Virus record (IMG/VR): IMGVR_UViG_3300021168_000355
Span: 1 to 64,000 of that record
Reading direction: 5' to 3' (one strand)
Source: a virus
Length of the DNA: 64,000 bases
Within the stretch, counting starts at the first letter, position 1. The number at the start of each line of letters is the position of its first letter. The notes beneath the pieces are model-generated. The model did not search any database. It was not told where the DNA came from and saw only the letters and a program-made list of their open reading frames with translations. Shown here piece by piece: positions 4,902 to 45,741 of the stretch. Both the position numbers and the translations under genes were made by a program.

Positions 4902-5167
4902 TGGCTGAAACAGAAGTTGGACGGTTAGCCCTGAGAGTTGAAGGCGATTGGTGGAGAGCATATTGGGCTCCCCACCAGTATGATTTTGATGGTGCGGTTC
5001 TATTGGGATCGATCCGCATGTCCTTGACGAAAGGAGCAGTAAAGGAGCACTTTATCAAGGTCATGTGTGAAGCCTTTAATGTGGTAGTTAAAGATACGAC
5101 TGGACAAGAACCAACATGGGGCGAACCACATTCTGCTCCAGAAAACGAGAGGAGCGGACGTGGCTGA
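4901..5167 (+). CDS. hypothetical protein
   Basis: TAATG overlap with queE; VGRLALRVEG..W.AY. Confidence 0.7.
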   Translation: MAETEVGRLALRVEGDWWRAYWAPHQYDFDGAVLLGSIRMSLTKGAVKEHFIKVMCEAFNVVVKDTTGQEPTWGEPHSAPENERSGRG

Positions 5168-7211
5168 ATATTGGGATGACGCTAGTGGAATGTTTTGGGA
5201 GGATGAACAATGGCAGCGTCGGGGTCATGGTCCTAAAGAGGATCCAATCGTTCAACTTCGGAAGAGGTTGATTGGATTTACATTTAATGATACCTACGAT
5301 AATCCCCCTCTCCTCGATCCCCCCGCGAATGCTGTCATGGCGTTCGATACTGAAACCGACGATCCAGACCTGTTGACGAGAGGATCGAGTTGGGCATTTG
5401 GCATAGGAGAGATCATTGGGTTTTCAGTCGCTTGGACCGGACACAAAGCTTATTATCCTCTGCGCCATTGCAGCGGTAATATTGACGCTGATGCACCACT
5501 TCGATGGCTGGCATCCCAAGTAAGGCGACAAGACCTAACTTGGGTCATGGCTCATGCCAACTATGACGTAGGCTGGTTATTCAGAGAGACAGGACAATAT
5601 CCTGTAGGTAAGATTATCGATGTCCAACACATGTCGGCACTCCTAAATGAGAATGAGTTTAGCTATTCCCTAGAAGCCATATCCATGCGATGCTTGGGTG
5701 CGGGCAAGGAGACTGATCGCCTCAAACAGCTAGAGGGACAGTTTGCCTGTAAACATACCACGATGATGGCAAGCCTGAAATACCTTCCCGGCCCTGTGGT
5801 TGCTGGATATGCGGAGACAGACGCCGAGCGGACTCTCCAGTGTTATTATGCCATGCTGCCAAGGATCCAGGAAGAGGGTCTCACTACCATATTTGATTTG
5901 GAGTGTGATCTTATCACCGCAGCAGTGGATATGAAGCGGTTAGGTCTCAGGGTTAATGTCGATCGGGCTCAATGGCTATCAGAGGATATTCAGAAGCGTA
6001 GAATGCCAGAAACCGTTGACGAGATAAAACGGTTGACTGGCATCACAGTCTCGCCCTGGCAGGCCGATTCCTGTTATGCCGCTCTCACTGAGGCTGGGGT
6101 ACAAGGGATTAAAAAGACCGCCAAAGGAGCGTGGCAAATCAATACAGAACTATTGGCGGTGCAATCTAAAACCAGCCCGGTGGCTAAATATATCTTTGAC
6201 CTTCGGAAAATGTCTAAAATTTCTGGAACCTTTATCGAAGGCCATATCCTCTATTACGAGAATCATGGCAGACTTCACGCCTCTTTTAACCAGTTGCGGA
6301 GTGAGAGTGACGCCGAACAGGGATCAAGTGTTGGCACAGTCACTGGTCGATGGTCAGCCTCTGATCCCGCCCTACAACAAATTCCAGTGCGAGACCCAGA
6401 ATGGGGGCCAGAGATACGCTCCCTATTTCTACCAGAGGAGGGTGAAGAATTTGCATCCCTCGACTATTCGTCCCAAGAGCCACGAATGGCTGTTCATTTT
6501 GCTTACAAAGCGGGGATACGTGGATCAAGGGATGCTGTTGAGCAGTTTCGGAAAGACCCACGTACCGATTATCATCAAATGGTTGCCGACTTCTCAGGTC
6601 TTAAACGAGACAGGGCTAAGACACTGAATCTGGGTTTAGCGTATGGAATGAAACAAGCCAAGATGGCTCGCGCTCTGGGACTACCAACACAATGGATGAG
6701 GCTAGAGAAGATAAACGGGAGTCGAACGAATTGGATCCCAATATCATATTCCGAGATTAATCGATGGCGATCTGAGGGCCAACAATGCGTTGAGGTCGCT
6801 GGCGATGAAGCAAAGGCAATCTTAAAGAAATGGAAAGAAGGTGCTCCGTTCTTAACAGGTCTATTTGAGGAGTGTGAAGATATAGCCAAGGAGCGGGGCT
6901 ATATCTGCACCCTTCTCAAACGCCGATGCCGATTTGATAATGCTGGCATGGGAGTCATCATTGATACCTATAAGGCAATGAATAGGTTGTGCCAATCATC
7001 TTCGGCAGACCAGACCAAAAAAGCCATGTCTTTATTGAAAGCAGAGAAGATTCCAATGAGATTGACTCTCCATGACGAACTCCTGTTTAGTATCTCGGAC
7101 AGAACGATAACGGAGCGCGTCAAAGAGATAATGGAGCACGCCGTTGAATTGGTTATACCCTCAGTCGTGGATGTAAAGTTTGGTCCTACATGGGGCGCTA
7201 TACCAAAATAA
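5160..7211 (+). CDS. polA: DNA polymerase family A with 3'-5' exonuclease
   Basis: ExoI FDTET, ExoII HANYD, ExoIII YAETDA, TGRWS, motif A DYSSQEPR, motif B RAKTLNLGLAYG, motif C HDE. Confidence 0.95.
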   Translation: MAEYWDDASGMFWEDEQWQRRGHGPKEDPIVQLRKRLIGFTFNDTYDNPPLLDPPANAVMAFDTETDDPDLLTRGSSWAFGIGEIIGFSVAWTGHKAYYPLRHCSGNIDADAPLRWLASQVRRQDLTWVMAHANYDVGWLFRETGQYPVGKIIDVQHMSALLNENEFSYSLEAISMRCLGAGKETDRLKQLEGQFACKHTTMMASLKYLPGPVVAGYAETDAERTLQCYYAMLPRIQEEGLTTIFDLECDLITAAVDMKRLGLRVNVDRAQWLSEDIQKRRMPETVDEIKRLTGITVSPWQADSCYAALTEAGVQGIKKTAKGAWQINTELLAVQSKTSPVAKYIFDLRKMSKISGTFIEGHILYYENHGRLHASFNQLRSESDAEQGSSVGTVTGRWSASDPALQQIPVRDPEWGPEIRSLFLPEEGEEFASLDYSSQEPRMAVHFAYKAGIRGSRDAVEQFRKDPRTDYHQMVADFSGLKRDRAKTLNLGLAYGMKQAKMARALGLPTQWMRLEKINGSRTNWIPISYSEINRWRSEGQQCVEVAGDEAKAILKKWKEGAPFLTGLFEECEDIAKERGYICTLLKRRCRFDNAGMGVIIDTYKAMNRLCQSSSADQTKKAMSLLKAEKIPMRLTLHDELLFSISDRTITERVKEIMEHAVELVIPSVVDVKFGPTWGAIPK

Positions 7212-7433: not shown

Positions 7434-8345
7434 ATGACGGATATCACGGTAGCCCAGGAAACTGGGATTGTTATAAGGACTGCGGAGCAGTGGCGACAAT
7501 ACGTCCAGGAAGCTTCATTCTTGGAACTTGATGCCATCCTTGAGAAAGGACGACGGATTCGGGAATTTCATTCCGAGTTCTTTCGGGACAAAGAGAAGTG
7601 GGGTGGCACGTGGACGGTCGCGTGCAAAAACATCCTTTTCCTTAGTCAATCAAGCTGTTCCCTTTACGAAACAATCAACCGTGTTTTCGATCCGCTTTTA
7701 TTGCAAAGGGTTCGTCATCTTTTGCCCTGCGATATCATGTCCCTATCATTGATCGCTAGAGCGGTCGAATTGGATCGGGGCGTTGTCAATGAGGCAGCCG
7801 CCACTAACATTCTGTCTCCTGAAATGAATCGGGAAGCTGCGACAAAGGTCCTCAAAGCCGCCGAACAAGTTGCTGAGGAGCATGTGATAAACCTCATCAG
7901 GGAGGGTAAAACTGATGAGGAGATATTTAAATCCACAGCATTGACTTACCAGAAAGTGACCGACCTCAAGAAACAGGTCGGCGACAGAGCAACGGAATTG
8001 AATCCAGAAGATGTTGGTCCAGATGTTGCGCGCGAGATACCAACTCCACCTCCCTCAGCGCCGGCTGCTGCGCCGAAGAAGGTGACTGTAACGGCGCCAC
8101 AGCAGCAAGTTGTTCCGCCACCACCGGCCTTATCACCTTTCAATGCGATACGGTTCGAGGTACAGAACTTAACCAATGTGATCATGGAGGATACGCTTAA
8201 AGTGATCCTCGAGTTCCGTTCCGAGTTCCCAGAAGTGTTCGCAACCATAGCTCAATGGGACGCGAAATTTGGTCCTCTGGCTGTGACAACCGTCCTCAAG
8301 CAACTCCAGCCAGACTTTAATGACGGAGAAGCAAGCCCAAAATGA
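7434..8345 (+). CDS. DUF3102-like protein, paralog 1
   Basis: AILEKGRRIREFH..W..W..C...LP...L pattern; clear paralog of 62734 and 63543. Confidence 0.6.
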   Translation: MTDITVAQETGIVIRTAEQWRQYVQEASFLELDAILEKGRRIREFHSEFFRDKEKWGGTWTVACKNILFLSQSSCSLYETINRVFDPLLLQRVRHLLPCDIMSLSLIARAVELDRGVVNEAAATNILSPEMNREAATKVLKAAEQVAEEHVINLIREGKTDEEIFKSTALTYQKVTDLKKQVGDRATELNPEDVGPDVAREIPTPPPSAPAAAPKKVTVTAPQQQVVPPPPALSPFNAIRFEVQNLTNVIMEDTLKVILEFRSEFPEVFATIAQWDAKFGPLAVTTVLKQLQPDFNDGEASPK

Positions 8346-8848
8346 GTAAGCCTTCTGTTGTCCTTTCTCCCGAGGAGCATGATCGAGTTGTGGAGTTGGT
8401 AAAGTCGGGGCGTACAATCAAGGGGATCGCGGACGAGTTCGGTTTCACTGCTAAGGGCGTTTCAAGTTACCTTAGGCGGAATAACATCGAACGCCCTGAG
8501 TCTCTTGATGGGGAAAAGGATACGCAGAAGGCTGCCCTCCAAGAACTACTCGACCGATCTAAAGAGGTAAGAGAAAAAGAAAGGGAGAAAAGAGCGTCCC
8601 AGCCAGAGCCACCTAGAGAAATTTTTGATCCAACTCCATCCGACTTTAAAATGCGCCTTATCACCCTAGCGGAGAAAAAGCAATACGACTGCTCTTGGAT
8701 CATTGGTGATCCCAAGAAATATTATCGGTATTGTGGTAATTCGACGATTGGAGTTATTGGTGTGTACTGTGAATACCACAAGAATATATCTCGGAACAAA
8801 CAACAGGTATCTTCGCCAAAACCCTATGTACCCGTAAATCACAAATAA
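8342..8848 (+). CDS. gcrA: GcrA-family cell-cycle regulator homolog
   Basis: N-terminal HTH (IADEFG...V..Y.RR) plus C-terminal CSWIIGDP...YCG.....YCEYH sigma70-interacting Zn motif. Confidence 0.8.
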   Translation: MSKPSVVLSPEEHDRVVELVKSGRTIKGIADEFGFTAKGVSSYLRRNNIERPESLDGEKDTQKAALQELLDRSKEVREKEREKRASQPEPPREIFDPTPSDFKMRLITLAEKKQYDCSWIIGDPKKYYRYCGNSTIGVIGVYCEYHKNISRNKQQVSSPKPYVPVNHK

Positions 8849-8883
8849 CTAGCAGTGGACAGCGTTCTGTGCTATTATACAGA

Positions 8884-9110
8884 ATGAAAGGTGATACTTG
8901 CTCGGGGAATCTCATACCGCAGCGGAACCTAGACTACCGGCGAGGGTACGTGGAGATTGTTGCATGTTAATCTCCATCAGTCCACTACAAGGCATTGTTC
9001 GGGCTCCCGAGCAAGGAGTCGCTTCGGCGACAAGGTCATTGAGCCCGTGAAACGATGCAACGTCTAGGATACTCGCCCCCGATGACTCCCGTCGTCGGGG
9101 GCGGTATTTA
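8884..9110 (+). ncRNA. candidate pseudoknotted structured RNA
   Basis: Extended -10 TGTGCTATTAT (8868-8878); multiple long helices, a UUCG tetraloop and a terminal GC-rich hairpin. Confidence 0.6.
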
Positions 9111-9124
9111 TTGAGGAGGGAAAA

Positions 9125-9436
9125 ATGAAAGCGGTATTGATTGGGGCATTCTTACTCTCACTGGGGGCTACCAATGCGGAAGCTTGTCACCGATTTAGTC
9201 GATGGTATTACCCCTACCCCCAGCGGTGTGATACGCGGCCCCTAAAGCACGATCTGGTTTATCGGGTGACCTCAGATCCGCCCGTACCGACTCCTCGCGA
9301 GGACGATGTTACTACCGACCCAGAGATTCCATTGCCCGATATGGCAGCGGTGTGGGAACCCCAAAGTGATTTTAAGGAATTGCAAGAAGGTCTGGAGCGA
9401 AAGAAAGCCTTAATTCTTTTGCTCAGTCGTCCCTAA
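9125..9436 (+). CDS. predicted secreted protein
   Basis: Signal peptide ending AEA; ACHRFSRWYYPYPQRC; strong GAGGAGG RBS. Confidence 0.7.
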   Translation: MKAVLIGAFLLSLGATNAEACHRFSRWYYPYPQRCDTRPLKHDLVYRVTSDPPVPTPREDDVTTDPEIPLPDMAAVWEPQSDFKELQEGLERKKALILLLSRP

Positions 9437-9634
9437 TTCTTTGTTCGCCGCATCAAGCGCCGCCATGATAATATTGCCGATCGGGGATGGATCAACGAAG
9501 GGATGCATTGATCCATCACTCGCCTTAGCGAGAATGGTTGGCGTGCTTAGGGCGATAATGATTTGATTAACCGCCTCTCCTGACAGATAGATATCAGGAG
9601 TAGCAGTGCCGGGTGGCTTAAAGGGTGTGTTCAT
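9410..9634 (-). CDS. hypothetical protein (leaderless)
   Basis: ATG lies 6 nt after the -10 of the promoter at 9641-9669. Confidence 0.6.
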   Translation of the reverse strand: MNTPFKPPGTATPDIYLSGEAVNQIIIALSTPTILAKASDGSMHPFVDPSPIGNIIMAALDAANKELGTTEQKN

Positions 9635-9640
9635 TTGACC

Positions 9641-9669
9641 ACGCTATCATAAATGCCCGAGGGTGTCAA
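9641..9669 (-). promoter_or_regulatory. sigma70-type promoter
   Basis: TTGACA-N17-TAGCGT on the minus strand. Confidence 0.65.
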
Positions 9670-9673
9670 GTCC

Positions 9674-9982
9674 TTATTTGTCACTTTTTCTACTAATCCA
9701 ATAAGCTATTACTGTGGAAAATGCCGCGATGAGACCACCAATTACATTGGATGTGGTCTCATTATTTGGTACCACAAAAAATACACTAAAAACAACCAAT
9801 CCCATAAACGTTAATATAACCAAAATAGATATGGTTAACATTCCATGTGTTGGATCAAATCTGGCTGAGGCGATTAATAATATAATGGTGAATGCGATGG
9901 CAAGTGCAATACCCATAGTTGCAGGATAATCAAGAAGTTTAGGTACTGGAGGCAAGTTCCCAACATATTCACTCGGGCTCAT
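9674..9982 (-). CDS. membrane protein (3 TM), lysis-cassette associated
   Basis: Three hydrophobic helices; C-terminal FSTVIAYW pattern like small holins. Confidence 0.55.
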   Translation of the reverse strand: MSPSEYVGNLPPVPKLLDYPATMGIALAIAFTIILLIASARFDPTHGMLTISILVILTFMGLVVFSVFFVVPNNETTSNVIGGLIAAFSTVIAYWISRKSDK

Positions 9983-10215
9983 TTCCCTAAGACTTTCGCG
10001 ACACCATAGACGCCGTATAGCCCAATTGCCATCCCAGCTATTTCAAGAGAAGTCCGAAACAAATGTTCGGGCGAACACAAATCGCTTGCCGCTATTCCTG
10101 TATGGGCTAAAGCAAAACACTGGCTCACCGCATAAAAGTCCATGAGCGCGAATATCGTTAAGATTAGTAACGCACCACATAGAGCGATTAGGCTGGTGAG
10201 CGGAGTTGGGTTCAT
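9979..10215 (-). CDS. small membrane protein (2 TM)
   Basis: Two hydrophobic segments; ATGA overlaps. Confidence 0.55.
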   Translation of the reverse strand: MNPTPLTSLIALCGALLILTIFALMDFYAVSQCFALAHTGIAASDLCSPEHLFRTSLEIAGMAIGLYGVYGVAKVLGK

Positions 10216-10565
10216 TTCAGCAGCTTCAACAACCCAGCTGGGGGAAAGAAGGTGGCAGCAGCACCGATGATCATATCCTTGATATCAGTGGTATTGTAAT
10301 CCTCAGCTTTCACCGCCGGAAGTAGGTCAGATATAACTTTGGTTGCGGATTCCAGAACTGCTTCGGGATTGTCGATCTTTCCTTGTAGGACAAGTTTCCC
10401 TGCTTCCGTAAGCGCAGCACGGCGGATTTCTCCCTCGTTACTATCGCTTTCCTGAATAGCAAGTTTCGTCCGAAGCCAGTTGAACACATAGGCACAGAGG
10501 GCTGTCCCAGCAGCCCCCAGGCATGTGATCGCAAGGGATTGGAGTTCGCTGAGAATACTATCCAT
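10212..10565 (-). CDS. putative holin/antiholin-like protein
   Basis: N-terminal TM; immediately follows the endolysin. Confidence 0.45.
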   Translation of the reverse strand: MDSILSELQSLAITCLGAAGTALCAYVFNWLRTKLAIQESDSNEGEIRRAALTEAGKLVLQGKIDNPEAVLESATKVISDLLPAVKAEDYNTTDIKDMIIGAAATFFPPAGLLKLLK

Positions 10566-11253
10566 CGTCCTGCTCCAGCGTCGAGGGGTCTGGCATTGGG
10601 GCGTTCTGGGGCAATCCCGGCAACTCTGCTTCCGCCACCGTCGTTATTGATTGGGTAGCTGGAATCTGTTTTAGGGCGCCTTTGAATTTCCAGTAGTAAC
10701 CCGCAATTGTTGACGCTTTGTCGGTTCCGTTAACGATGCGTCGAGCGTTGACTGGATCTTCAATTCCTTTCGATTTAGACAGATATTTGGGTAGTCCAAC
10801 ACCTGTGAACCACCCATAGATCATTCCATCATAGGAAATGAGTGCGGATGTTTCAGCATCCAAAGCATTGTTGGCAACAGGGTGAATCTGGCAATCCTTG
10901 CCATAACGTTCTTTGAGGAATTTCTGCCCGTTCTTGTAGTTTTCTTCCCATGTTAACTGGACATAGCCTCGTCCATAATAACACTGGTTATAAGGACCGG
11001 CGGGCTTGCCATAGCTCTTGCCGGACCCGCGCCCATATTCTTCAATGGGCTGCATAGTGTAGGCAGTTTCATGGTAGAATGTTGCCAGAGCATAGGCAAG
11101 CCACATCGTACCATCATTGGGATTGTTGGCCTCGAACGCCCATTCCCAAACCTCAAGGAGGTAGTTCATACCATCGACTTGAGATTGGGTCAACGTGCCA
11201 CTGAACAGGTCTTTCCGCACAGTGTCAAAAAAGAATTTCCGATCGTAAGGCAT
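10558..11253 (-). CDS. endolysin, glycoside hydrolase family 19-like
   Basis: AYALAT.YHET, PIEEYG, YYGRGYVQLTWEENY, ARRIVNG. Confidence 0.85.
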   Translation of the reverse strand: MPYDRKFFFDTVRKDLFSGTLTQSQVDGMNYLLEVWEWAFEANNPNDGTMWLAYALATFYHETAYTMQPIEEYGRGSGKSYGKPAGPYNQCYYGRGYVQLTWEENYKNGQKFLKERYGKDCQIHPVANNALDAETSALISYDGMIYGWFTGVGLPKYLSKSKGIEDPVNARRIVNGTDKASTIAGYYWKFKGALKQIPATQSITTVAEAELPGLPQNAPMPDPSTLEQDDG

Positions 11254-45234: not shown

Positions 45235-45741
45235 GTGAAGCACATGCCAGGAATCACCTACAAATCCTATAACTTCGTCACTAAGGATCCAATAATCGAT
45301 CAAATACGGACAGTTATACAGGATAGTGGTGTCACCTTTAAATGGATTGAAGAAAGGTCAGGTGTAACATCACAGACATTGGCTAAATGGATTTATGGCG
45401 ATACCAAGAAACCACAAGCTGCCACAATCAATGCGGTATTGCGTGTCTTAGGCAAAAAACTAATTATCGCCGATATTAATGCCTTTGAGGATGTTGCCGC
45501 AACACCTTGGCGCGCTCCCCCAGTGCATGAGAGGACGCCTACTAATAAGGTGGCGAAATACCGCGCTCCGAAAATGCAATATGATCCCAACGATGAATCC
45601 ACTTGGAGCAGAGTAGGTGGCGCACCAATAGTTGGTAGACCCACTCGTACATTGCCACCTGAGCCTGAGACCTTCAAAGATAAAGGGAAAGTCGTTTCCC
45701 GCAGCTTCAATGCCATTCCATCTATCGAGACCAAGAAATGA
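45235..45741 (+). CDS. XRE-type HTH transcriptional regulator
   Basis: I.ERSGV...TL.KW..GDTKKPQ.ATI.AV...LG. Confidence 0.75.
   Translation: MKHMPGITYKSYNFVTKDPIIDQIRTVIQDSGVTFKWIEERSGVTSQTLAKWIYGDTKKPQAATINAVLRVLGKKLIIADINAFEDVAATPWRAPPVHERTPTNKVAKYRAPKMQYDPNDESTWSRVGGAPIVGRPTRTLPPEPETFKDKGKVVSRSFNAIPSIETKK

Follow-up and report, generated by a model that had tools for sequence, protein, structure and literature searches.

RNA classes with complex conserved folds are rare, and those found in the past have been ribozymes, riboswitches or the cores of RNA-protein machines. Phages are known to make small stable RNAs from dedicated promoters and terminators, such as the species 1 and 2 RNAs of T4, c4 of P1 and CI of P4. 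Among self-cleaving RNAs, the HDV-like, glmS and hatchet ribozymes cut at their 5' end, and the layout of the 5' helix in the RNA described here resembles theirs. At the level of uncultured viruses, a survey by Fremin, Bhatt and Kyrpides in 2023 produced 10,006 predictions of structured RNAs from IMG/VR, which are uncharacterised (PMC10690425). The RNA family that we describe may be among those predictions.

The stretch of DNA that was analysed, here called the window, comprises positions 1 to 64 kb of a 76.8-kb IMG/VR record (97% complete) from an uncultured phage. Genes on the + strand up to position 9436 form a replication and early block, and the RNA element lies in a 276-nt gap between a GcrA-like gene and a gene of 103 codons. 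It is present once in the 76.8-kb genome, and a scan for tRNA and tmRNA found none. The surrounding genes are as follows.

5160-7211, + strand: family-A DNA polymerase, about 37% identical to its counterparts in Pseudomonas siphophages
8342-8848, + strand: GcrA-like protein (Pfam PF07750, 27.3 bits against a cut-off of 26.9)
9125-9436, + strand: signal-peptide (secreted) protein of 103 codons, the final + strand gene
9410 onward, - strand: a run of genes with the lysis cassette first
10558-11253, - strand: endolysin (phrog_181), part of the lysis cassette

The GcrA-like protein combines a helix-turn-helix (HTH) with a C-terminal C..W.IGDP...CG...YC..H motif, and its eleven relatives (46-99% identity) all come from metagenomes. 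Besides the endolysin, the lysis cassette (9410-11253) encodes three small membrane proteins. The signal-peptide gene is convergent to this cassette, and its 103-aa product may be a lysis accessory, for example a spanin-like protein.

The best reading of positions 8885-9112 (approximate ends) is that they encode a self-contained structured noncoding RNA, which is a long variant of a widespread and uncatalogued family of phage RNAs. Judging from sequence comparisons, we put the probability that this RNA is autonomous and binds either a conserved factor of the host or a small molecule at roughly 0.5. The parts of the element are listed below, with helix names that are used throughout.

8885-9112, + strand: whole RNA unit of about 225 nt, a knotted core plus a 3' hairpin (fold z -4.3)
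8856-8885, + strand: promoter-like box, TGGACA (8856-8861) and then either TGcTATTAT (8870-8878, extended -10 type) or CAGAAT (8880-8885)
8897-8906, + strand: 5' strand of the long pseudoknot, CUUGCUCGGG, pairing with 9006-9015
8918-8925, + strand: 5' strand of helix alpha, CGC-AG-CGG with the AG bulged, from mutual information
8928-8934, + strand: 5' strand of P1, CCUAGAC, inside the loop of helix alpha
8937-8942, + strand: 3' strand of helix alpha, CCGGCG, from mutual information and pair counts
8943-8946, + strand: 5' strand of helix x, AGGG, with its partner at 8983-8986 and one G-A mismatch in the window phage
8951-8976, + strand: P3, a variable hairpin that most family members lack and that is greatly extended in clade 2
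8983-8991, + strand: conserved junction CACUACAAG (family consensus GCGCUACAAG)
8992-9006, + strand: 5' strands of P4 (8992-8999) and P5 (9000-9006), from covariation
9006-9015, + strand: 3' strand of the long pseudoknot, CCCGAGCAAG, the opening bases of the P5 loop
9018-9031, + strand: P6 hairpin, GUCGC-UUCG-GCGAC, in the window's clade only
9041-9058, + strand: 3' strand of P5 (9041-9047), UGA bulge (9048-9050) and 3' strand of P4 (9051-9058)
9059-9068, + strand: junction AAC (9059-9061) and 3' strand of P1 (9062-9068)
9073-9112, + strand: G+C-rich hairpin of 14 bp, then UAUUUAUU; terminator or stabiliser of the 3' end

The initial annotation had read a pseudoknotted RNA of seven helices from this gap, and a check of complementarity found every one of them where it had been placed. 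Complementarity is perfect in P1 (8928-34/9062-68), P3 (8951-58/8969-76), P5 (9000-06/9041-47), P6 (9018-22/9027-31) and the long pseudoknot (8897-8905/9007-15), while P4 (8992-99/9051-58) and the 3' hairpin, counted there as 13 bp (9074-86/9091-9103), contain one G-U pair each. Close relatives have a larger loop at the P6 hairpin. The + strand folds with an energy of -97.8 kcal/mol, compared to -77.4 +/- 4.7 kcal/mol in 200 shuffles, none of which was as good (z -4.3); the - strand gives a poorer z of -2.9. The energy model also added a UACC/GGUA hairpin (8935-48), which is not a conserved pairing, and covariation favours helix alpha. A second local hairpin, UUGCUCGG/CCGCAGCGG, proposed by RNAalifold on the close relatives, was likewise dropped: it is lost in clade 2, where the pseudoknot persists.

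Homologs were collected in several ways. Four further close copies were found through the GcrA-like and 103-aa proteins, on two IMG/VR and three metagenome contigs. In one of these (L015) the flanking GcrA is just 58% identical and the helices are kept by compensatory changes, with a G-C pair of P4 turned into A-U and P3 rebuilt in another register. A covariance model (R1) built from the five close sequences scores 223 bits on the window (8892-9071), and it located the RNA elsewhere in two related phages of 75-80 kb. Three pattern scans of IMG/VR, based on the conserved unpaired blocks, extended the search. The last of these scans yielded 66 loci, of which 53 were new, and 42 of these 53 were confirmed by R1. 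The covariance model and the three scans together give about 60 IMG/VR contigs that carry the RNA. Distant members score low because all of the model searches used R1, which represents the window's clade only. The alignment used below (A7) holds 41 distinct copies; their contigs range from 40 to 66% GC and represent many sample types, soil and freshwater among them.

Some pattern matches were discarded as due to chance, namely L019, L036 and L038-L040 in coding sequence, L021-L031 in bacterial MAGs, and the high-GC coding loci among L045-L063. One copy, L047:2007-2180, is either decayed or a variant: an internal deletion has removed its P5 and its 3' pseudoknot strand. One 27-kb contig (IMGVR_UViG_3300047160_001333) carries two different copies of the RNA, L085:4905-5049 and L094:4744-4885. 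The family pattern was not found in a sample of 802 bacterial genomes from two phyla, and blastn with the window RNA gave no match among cultured phages.

The conserved core that emerges from these copies is about 125 nt long. It consists of P1, which closes the domain, P4, P5 with the UGA bulge, and two crossing pairings: the 5' tail pairs with the P5 loop, and helix alpha holds the 5' strand of P1 within its own loop. The window's P3, P6 and 3' hairpin are additions to this core that are specific to particular clades. Across the 41 homologs 95.8% of 1224 cells are paired, compared to 71.8% in shuffles and 32-39% when the partners are slid, and the covariation score is 0.587 against 0.14 in shuffles, with none of 500 shuffles reaching it. 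P1, P4 and P5 emerged from mutual information with average-product correction, along with helices that are invisible to the energy model. All seven pairs of P1 change on both sides across the family, with 97.4% of cells paired; six of the eight P4 pairs do so, and the variable pair of P5 occurs as six pair types. The family form of helix alpha is NGC-AG-CSG / CSGGCN (8918-20 and 8923-25 with 8937-42 in the window), and its two varying pairs are distributed as 20 CG, 10 UA, 5 AU and 3 GU in one case and 20 CG and 19 GC in the other. Helix x has the form AGYG / CRCU, in which AGCG/CGCU alternates with AGUG/CACU; it is the weakest helix in the window's clade. A CC/GG contact seen in the family is not formed in that clade.

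The long pseudoknot is kept in 39 of 40 distinct copies despite unrelated sequences. Its strands are CCCACCGAGGA/UCUUCGGUGGG in L041, and CUAAGCAAGC/GCUUGCUUAG and ACCGCCUGGAC/GUCCAGGCGGU in other members, and duplexes between cognate strands average -22.4 kcal/mol, compared to -14.5 kcal/mol for non-cognate ones. About 35 unpaired positions are near-invariant; they lie in the blocks CCNGCAGCSG, GGCRAG, GCGCUACAAG, GUGAAA with its UGA bulge, and CAA. All 21 aligned short members have both GUGAAA and CUACAAG, and CUACAAG is near-invariant in all 41. The pairs include many G-U and almost no A-C combinations, which settles the strand as +. The covariation proves a conserved fold. The RNA is real and strand-specific, and it is under strong selection for its knotted fold.

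Several features suggest where the RNA of the window's clade begins and ends. The promoter-like box contains a match to TGGACA-18-CAGAAT in a consensus scan, and the 35 nt upstream that include the box are near-invariant in five close relatives, even in L015 with its diverged GcrA. We infer from these motifs that transcription would start at about 8885-8892. An inverted repeat (8851-8875) overlaps the box; it reads AGCACA..N11..TGTGCT in the relatives and is imperfect in the window, and its possible roles are those of an operator or of a terminator for the gcrA-like gene. At the other end, 9073-9112 has the features of an intrinsic terminator, with a 14-bp stem that includes 10 G-C pairs and U-rich UAUUUAUU directly after it. 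In L015, both bases differ in three pairs of this hairpin. A hairpin of the same length but unrelated sequence occupies this position in clade 2, where the U tract after it is weak.

The surroundings of the RNA vary a great deal. In most members it spans the entire gap between two genes on the same strand, starts at most 13 nt past the upstream stop codon, lacks the 3' hairpin, and ends 10-27 nt ahead of the next ribosome site and start codon. The window's clade has the GcrA-like gene upstream and the secreted 103-aa protein gene downstream. In clade 2, whose phages are without a GcrA-like gene, the RNA always follows a gene for a 113-aa HTH protein. The window phage encodes a homolog of that protein elsewhere (45235-45741, 168 aa, 65% identity over 81 aa), with no adjoining RNA. 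Distant homologs of the 103-aa protein, including those in related phages, likewise have no RNA upstream or adjoining. A link between the RNA and either the GcrA-like or the 113-aa HTH gene was considered and dropped, as the two proteins are unrelated and neither link holds across clades. Flanking genes in other lineages encode a DUF2201 VWA/metallopeptidase, thymidylate synthase, RusA, DNA ligase, a protein resembling the RNA polymerase alpha-CTD, DUF551 and DUF3846, and no protein family is shared across lineages within +/-7 kb. Two loci have a thymidylate-synthase-like ORF immediately upstream of the RNA (L086:5535-6548 and L103:25-576), with a Pfam match that ends at profile position 219 of 266.

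These contexts bear on the proposal that the element is a riboswitch or attenuator, in which a metabolite or signal would set either read-through of the 9073-9104 hairpin or translation of the downstream gene. The conserved, aptamer-like pocket with its covarying helices would suit such a switch, as would the position, since a gene with a good ribosome site always starts 10-70 nt further downstream on the strand of the RNA, and in the window the order of structure, U-tailed hairpin and ribosome site resembles that of a transcriptional switch. The downstream genes, however, are unrelated between lineages and are not metabolic, so that no constant pathway appears, and an expression platform is equally hard to find. 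The hairpin is missing in most members, no conserved antiterminator was found, and no competitor for the 14-bp hairpin (about -30 kcal/mol) could be found by eye. Sequestration of the ribosome site was rejected, as the pairing between the flanks of this site and the RNA does not exceed that of shuffled flanks and involves no constant partner. Independence from any one neighbour, together with the lack of a conserved expression platform, argues against a switch for the downstream gene, and the element is probably not one; on these sequence patterns we consider a riboswitch or attenuator rather improbable. The preQ0/preQ1 idea behind one of the checks proposed in the initial annotation gains no support from gene context, and of the three possibilities raised there (noncoding RNA, ribozyme, or attenuator/riboswitch) the last is the least supported, while the underlying claim of a structured RNA has held up. 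Some cis effect on the downstream gene is possible, given a 14-bp hairpin about 20 nt before a strong ribosome site.

The same intercistronic position, with the RNA spanning the entire gap and a stable 3' hairpin present in two clades, might instead point to a passive element of the mRNA, that is, an RNase-processing site, a stabiliser or an intercistronic insulator without an activity of its own. A processing site or stabiliser would not call for about 35 invariant unpaired bases plus three crossing helices, maintained in phages that range from 40 to 66% GC, and we find this explanation quite improbable.

A copy of the RNA in cultured phages came to light when blastn was run with two family members as queries: both match one spot in the Caulobacter phiCbK-like phages, at about 125,330-125,540 in phiCbK (JX100813.1, minus strand). 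R1 detects this copy weakly (11.5 bits, E 0.0017 in 3 kb), and the element contains the family block GGGGCAAGCGUUAAAGGCGCUACAAG. Magneto, BL57 and Rogue show compensatory changes in four helices. P4 occurs as GUCGAAC/GUUCGAC, GUCAGAC/GUCUGAC and ACCAGAC/GUCUGGU, P5 as CCGA/UCGG and CCAU/AUGG, and the tail pseudoknot as GACCGCC/GGCGGUC and GACCACC/GGUGGUC, and a compensatory change in P1 was read by eye. Helix alpha is present and carries an insert of 32-38 nt within the loop. Downstream of the element come a hairpin that has a UUUU tract and, between this hairpin and the next gene, a TTGACA...GCAAAT box. This next gene thus has its own promoter-like box past the terminator, a further point against a switch acting on what lies downstream.

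Could the conserved sequence encode something other than RNA, either a small protein or a single-stranded DNA signal of the replication module? The element does lie among replication genes, and two candidate reading frames exist. The initial annotation had pointed to a 28-codon leaderless ORF at 8884 (8884-8970). This ORF has no Pfam match and was rejected as a gene, as its length (28, 28, 16, 59 and 30 codons) and frame are not conserved among the five close sequences. On the phiCbK-like copy, some GenBank records annotate a 68-aa ORF (Magneto gp153, L118:1432-1635; phiCbK CbK_gp155, L121:732-935), which overlies the RNA together with its terminator, while in about half of the records the region is unannotated. 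The ATG of the phiCbK ORF is ACG in BL57, and neither BL57 nor Rogue conserves the ORF. Considering also that a transcribed strand is indicated by the G-U pairing pattern, by the terminator and by the promoter-like box, a protein gene or DNA signal is extremely improbable, and Magneto gp153 and phiCbK gp155 are probably mis-annotations of the family RNA rather than proteins.

We return to the preferred reading, an autonomous RNA. Terminator-type 3' ends in two lineages, the promoter-like box of the window's lineage and a possible promoter in the phiCbK-like phages suggest a discrete RNA. In the window phage it would be made as its own short transcript, running from the promoter-like box (8856-8885) to the strong U-tailed hairpin (9073-9112), and would accumulate early, alongside the replication genes. 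Its knotted core could provide a pocket for something common to many hosts, either a conserved machine of host protein or RNA or a small molecule. The downstream gene would be outside the control of the RNA, and leaky read-through of the hairpin would still allow expression of the 103-codon gene at 9125. Two observations weigh against an autonomous RNA: the filling of gaps between genes on the same strand would also suit an element that acts within an mRNA, and the U tract after the clade 2 hairpin is weak.

The initial annotation had recognised no known family, and a search of Rfam 15 (4227 covariance models) agrees with it. Nothing was found over the window's 8868-9115 at E<=10, nothing reached the gathering score anywhere in the window, and 20 related loci, the phiCbK-like copies included, gave no match to the element beyond noise. 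The sole signal, aceE-II on the opposite strand of the Magneto copy, is at noise level (14.8 bits against a gathering score of 100). Resemblances to RNase P, 5S rRNA, cobalamin, THF, a group I intron core and the k-turn were considered and dropped, as no model matched. The literature yielded no description of this RNA family. The family is new in the sense that it is absent from Rfam 15 and from the papers that were searched.

These same searches bear on the idea that the RNA is a self-cleaving ribozyme or other self-processing module, which would cut at or near its own 5' edge and so separate the upstream message from itself and from the downstream message. Crossing pairings and many invariant unpaired bases are found here as in catalytic cores, and the 5'-most part of this RNA is a helix of free sequence that starts at most 13 nt past the upstream stop codon. 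The variable contexts and the two copies on one contig (L085 and L094) are also reminiscent of small phage-borne ribozymes. Even at E up to 10, however, no ribozyme of Rfam matches, the invariant junctions correspond to no known core, the order of strands differs from that in the HDV-like and glmS folds, and 125-225 nt exceeds the length of most self-cleaving classes. We regard self-cleavage as possible but unlikely, as judged from the sequence. A broader proposal is that the family is a new catalytic or ligand-binding class of RNA that is present in many unrelated phages, either as a self-cleaving ribozyme or with a pocket that captures a host molecule early in infection, for example a nucleotide of immune signalling or a conserved enzyme of the host; this we offer as a tentative and somewhat doubtful possibility.

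Whatever its activity, the class spans many phage lineages over a GC range of 40-66%, occurs in soil, freshwater and other samples, and moves between gene contexts. The phiCbK copy corrects the annotation of two probable non-proteins and places the RNA in a genetically tractable phage of a model bacterium, so that its function can be tested there. RNA-seq over a time course of phiCbK infection exists (PMC10688885; GSE241057 as listed in PMC12121620).

How does this RNA compare with the known systems? The IMG/VR candidates of Fremin et al. (PMC10690425) come from the same collection and are the same type of object, covarying intergenic RNAs of uncultured phages. ROOL, GOLLD, raiA and HEARO (Rfam; PMC12286853, PMC5737381) are likewise conserved and intricate RNAs found by covariation, often phage-borne and in variable gene contexts, with functions that are unknown or recently found. 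The present family matches none of these four in sequence or structure, is far smaller (a core of 125 nt), and is dominated by its two crossing pairings.

The HDV-like ribozymes, including the theta ribozymes of gut phages (PMC10879173), and glmS are nested double pseudoknots that cleave at the 5' end. The family shares with them a 5'-terminal helix that is free in sequence and has its partner strand deep within the fold, another crossing helix that closes the 3' end, invariant junctions and carriage by phages. It differs in that the 3' strand of its tail pseudoknot lies inside the loop of the P5 hairpin and in lacking an Rfam match, and its length is two to three times that of HDV-like ribozymes. 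In the preQ1-II/III, SAM-II and c-di-GMP-II aptamers, the loop of a hairpin is paired to a distal 3' strand, in the manner of helix alpha and P1 here, and conserved pocket-like junction bases and a position upstream of a gene are further points in common. Those pseudoknotted riboswitches are set apart by a constant class of downstream gene, a conserved expression platform and an Rfam model that matches, none of which the family has. Finally, T4 species 1 and 2, P1 c4 and P4 CI resemble the RNA as short noncoding transcription units among early genes. They are simple hairpins or antisense RNAs of one phage group, whereas the RNA described here has a knotted core that recurs in many lineages.
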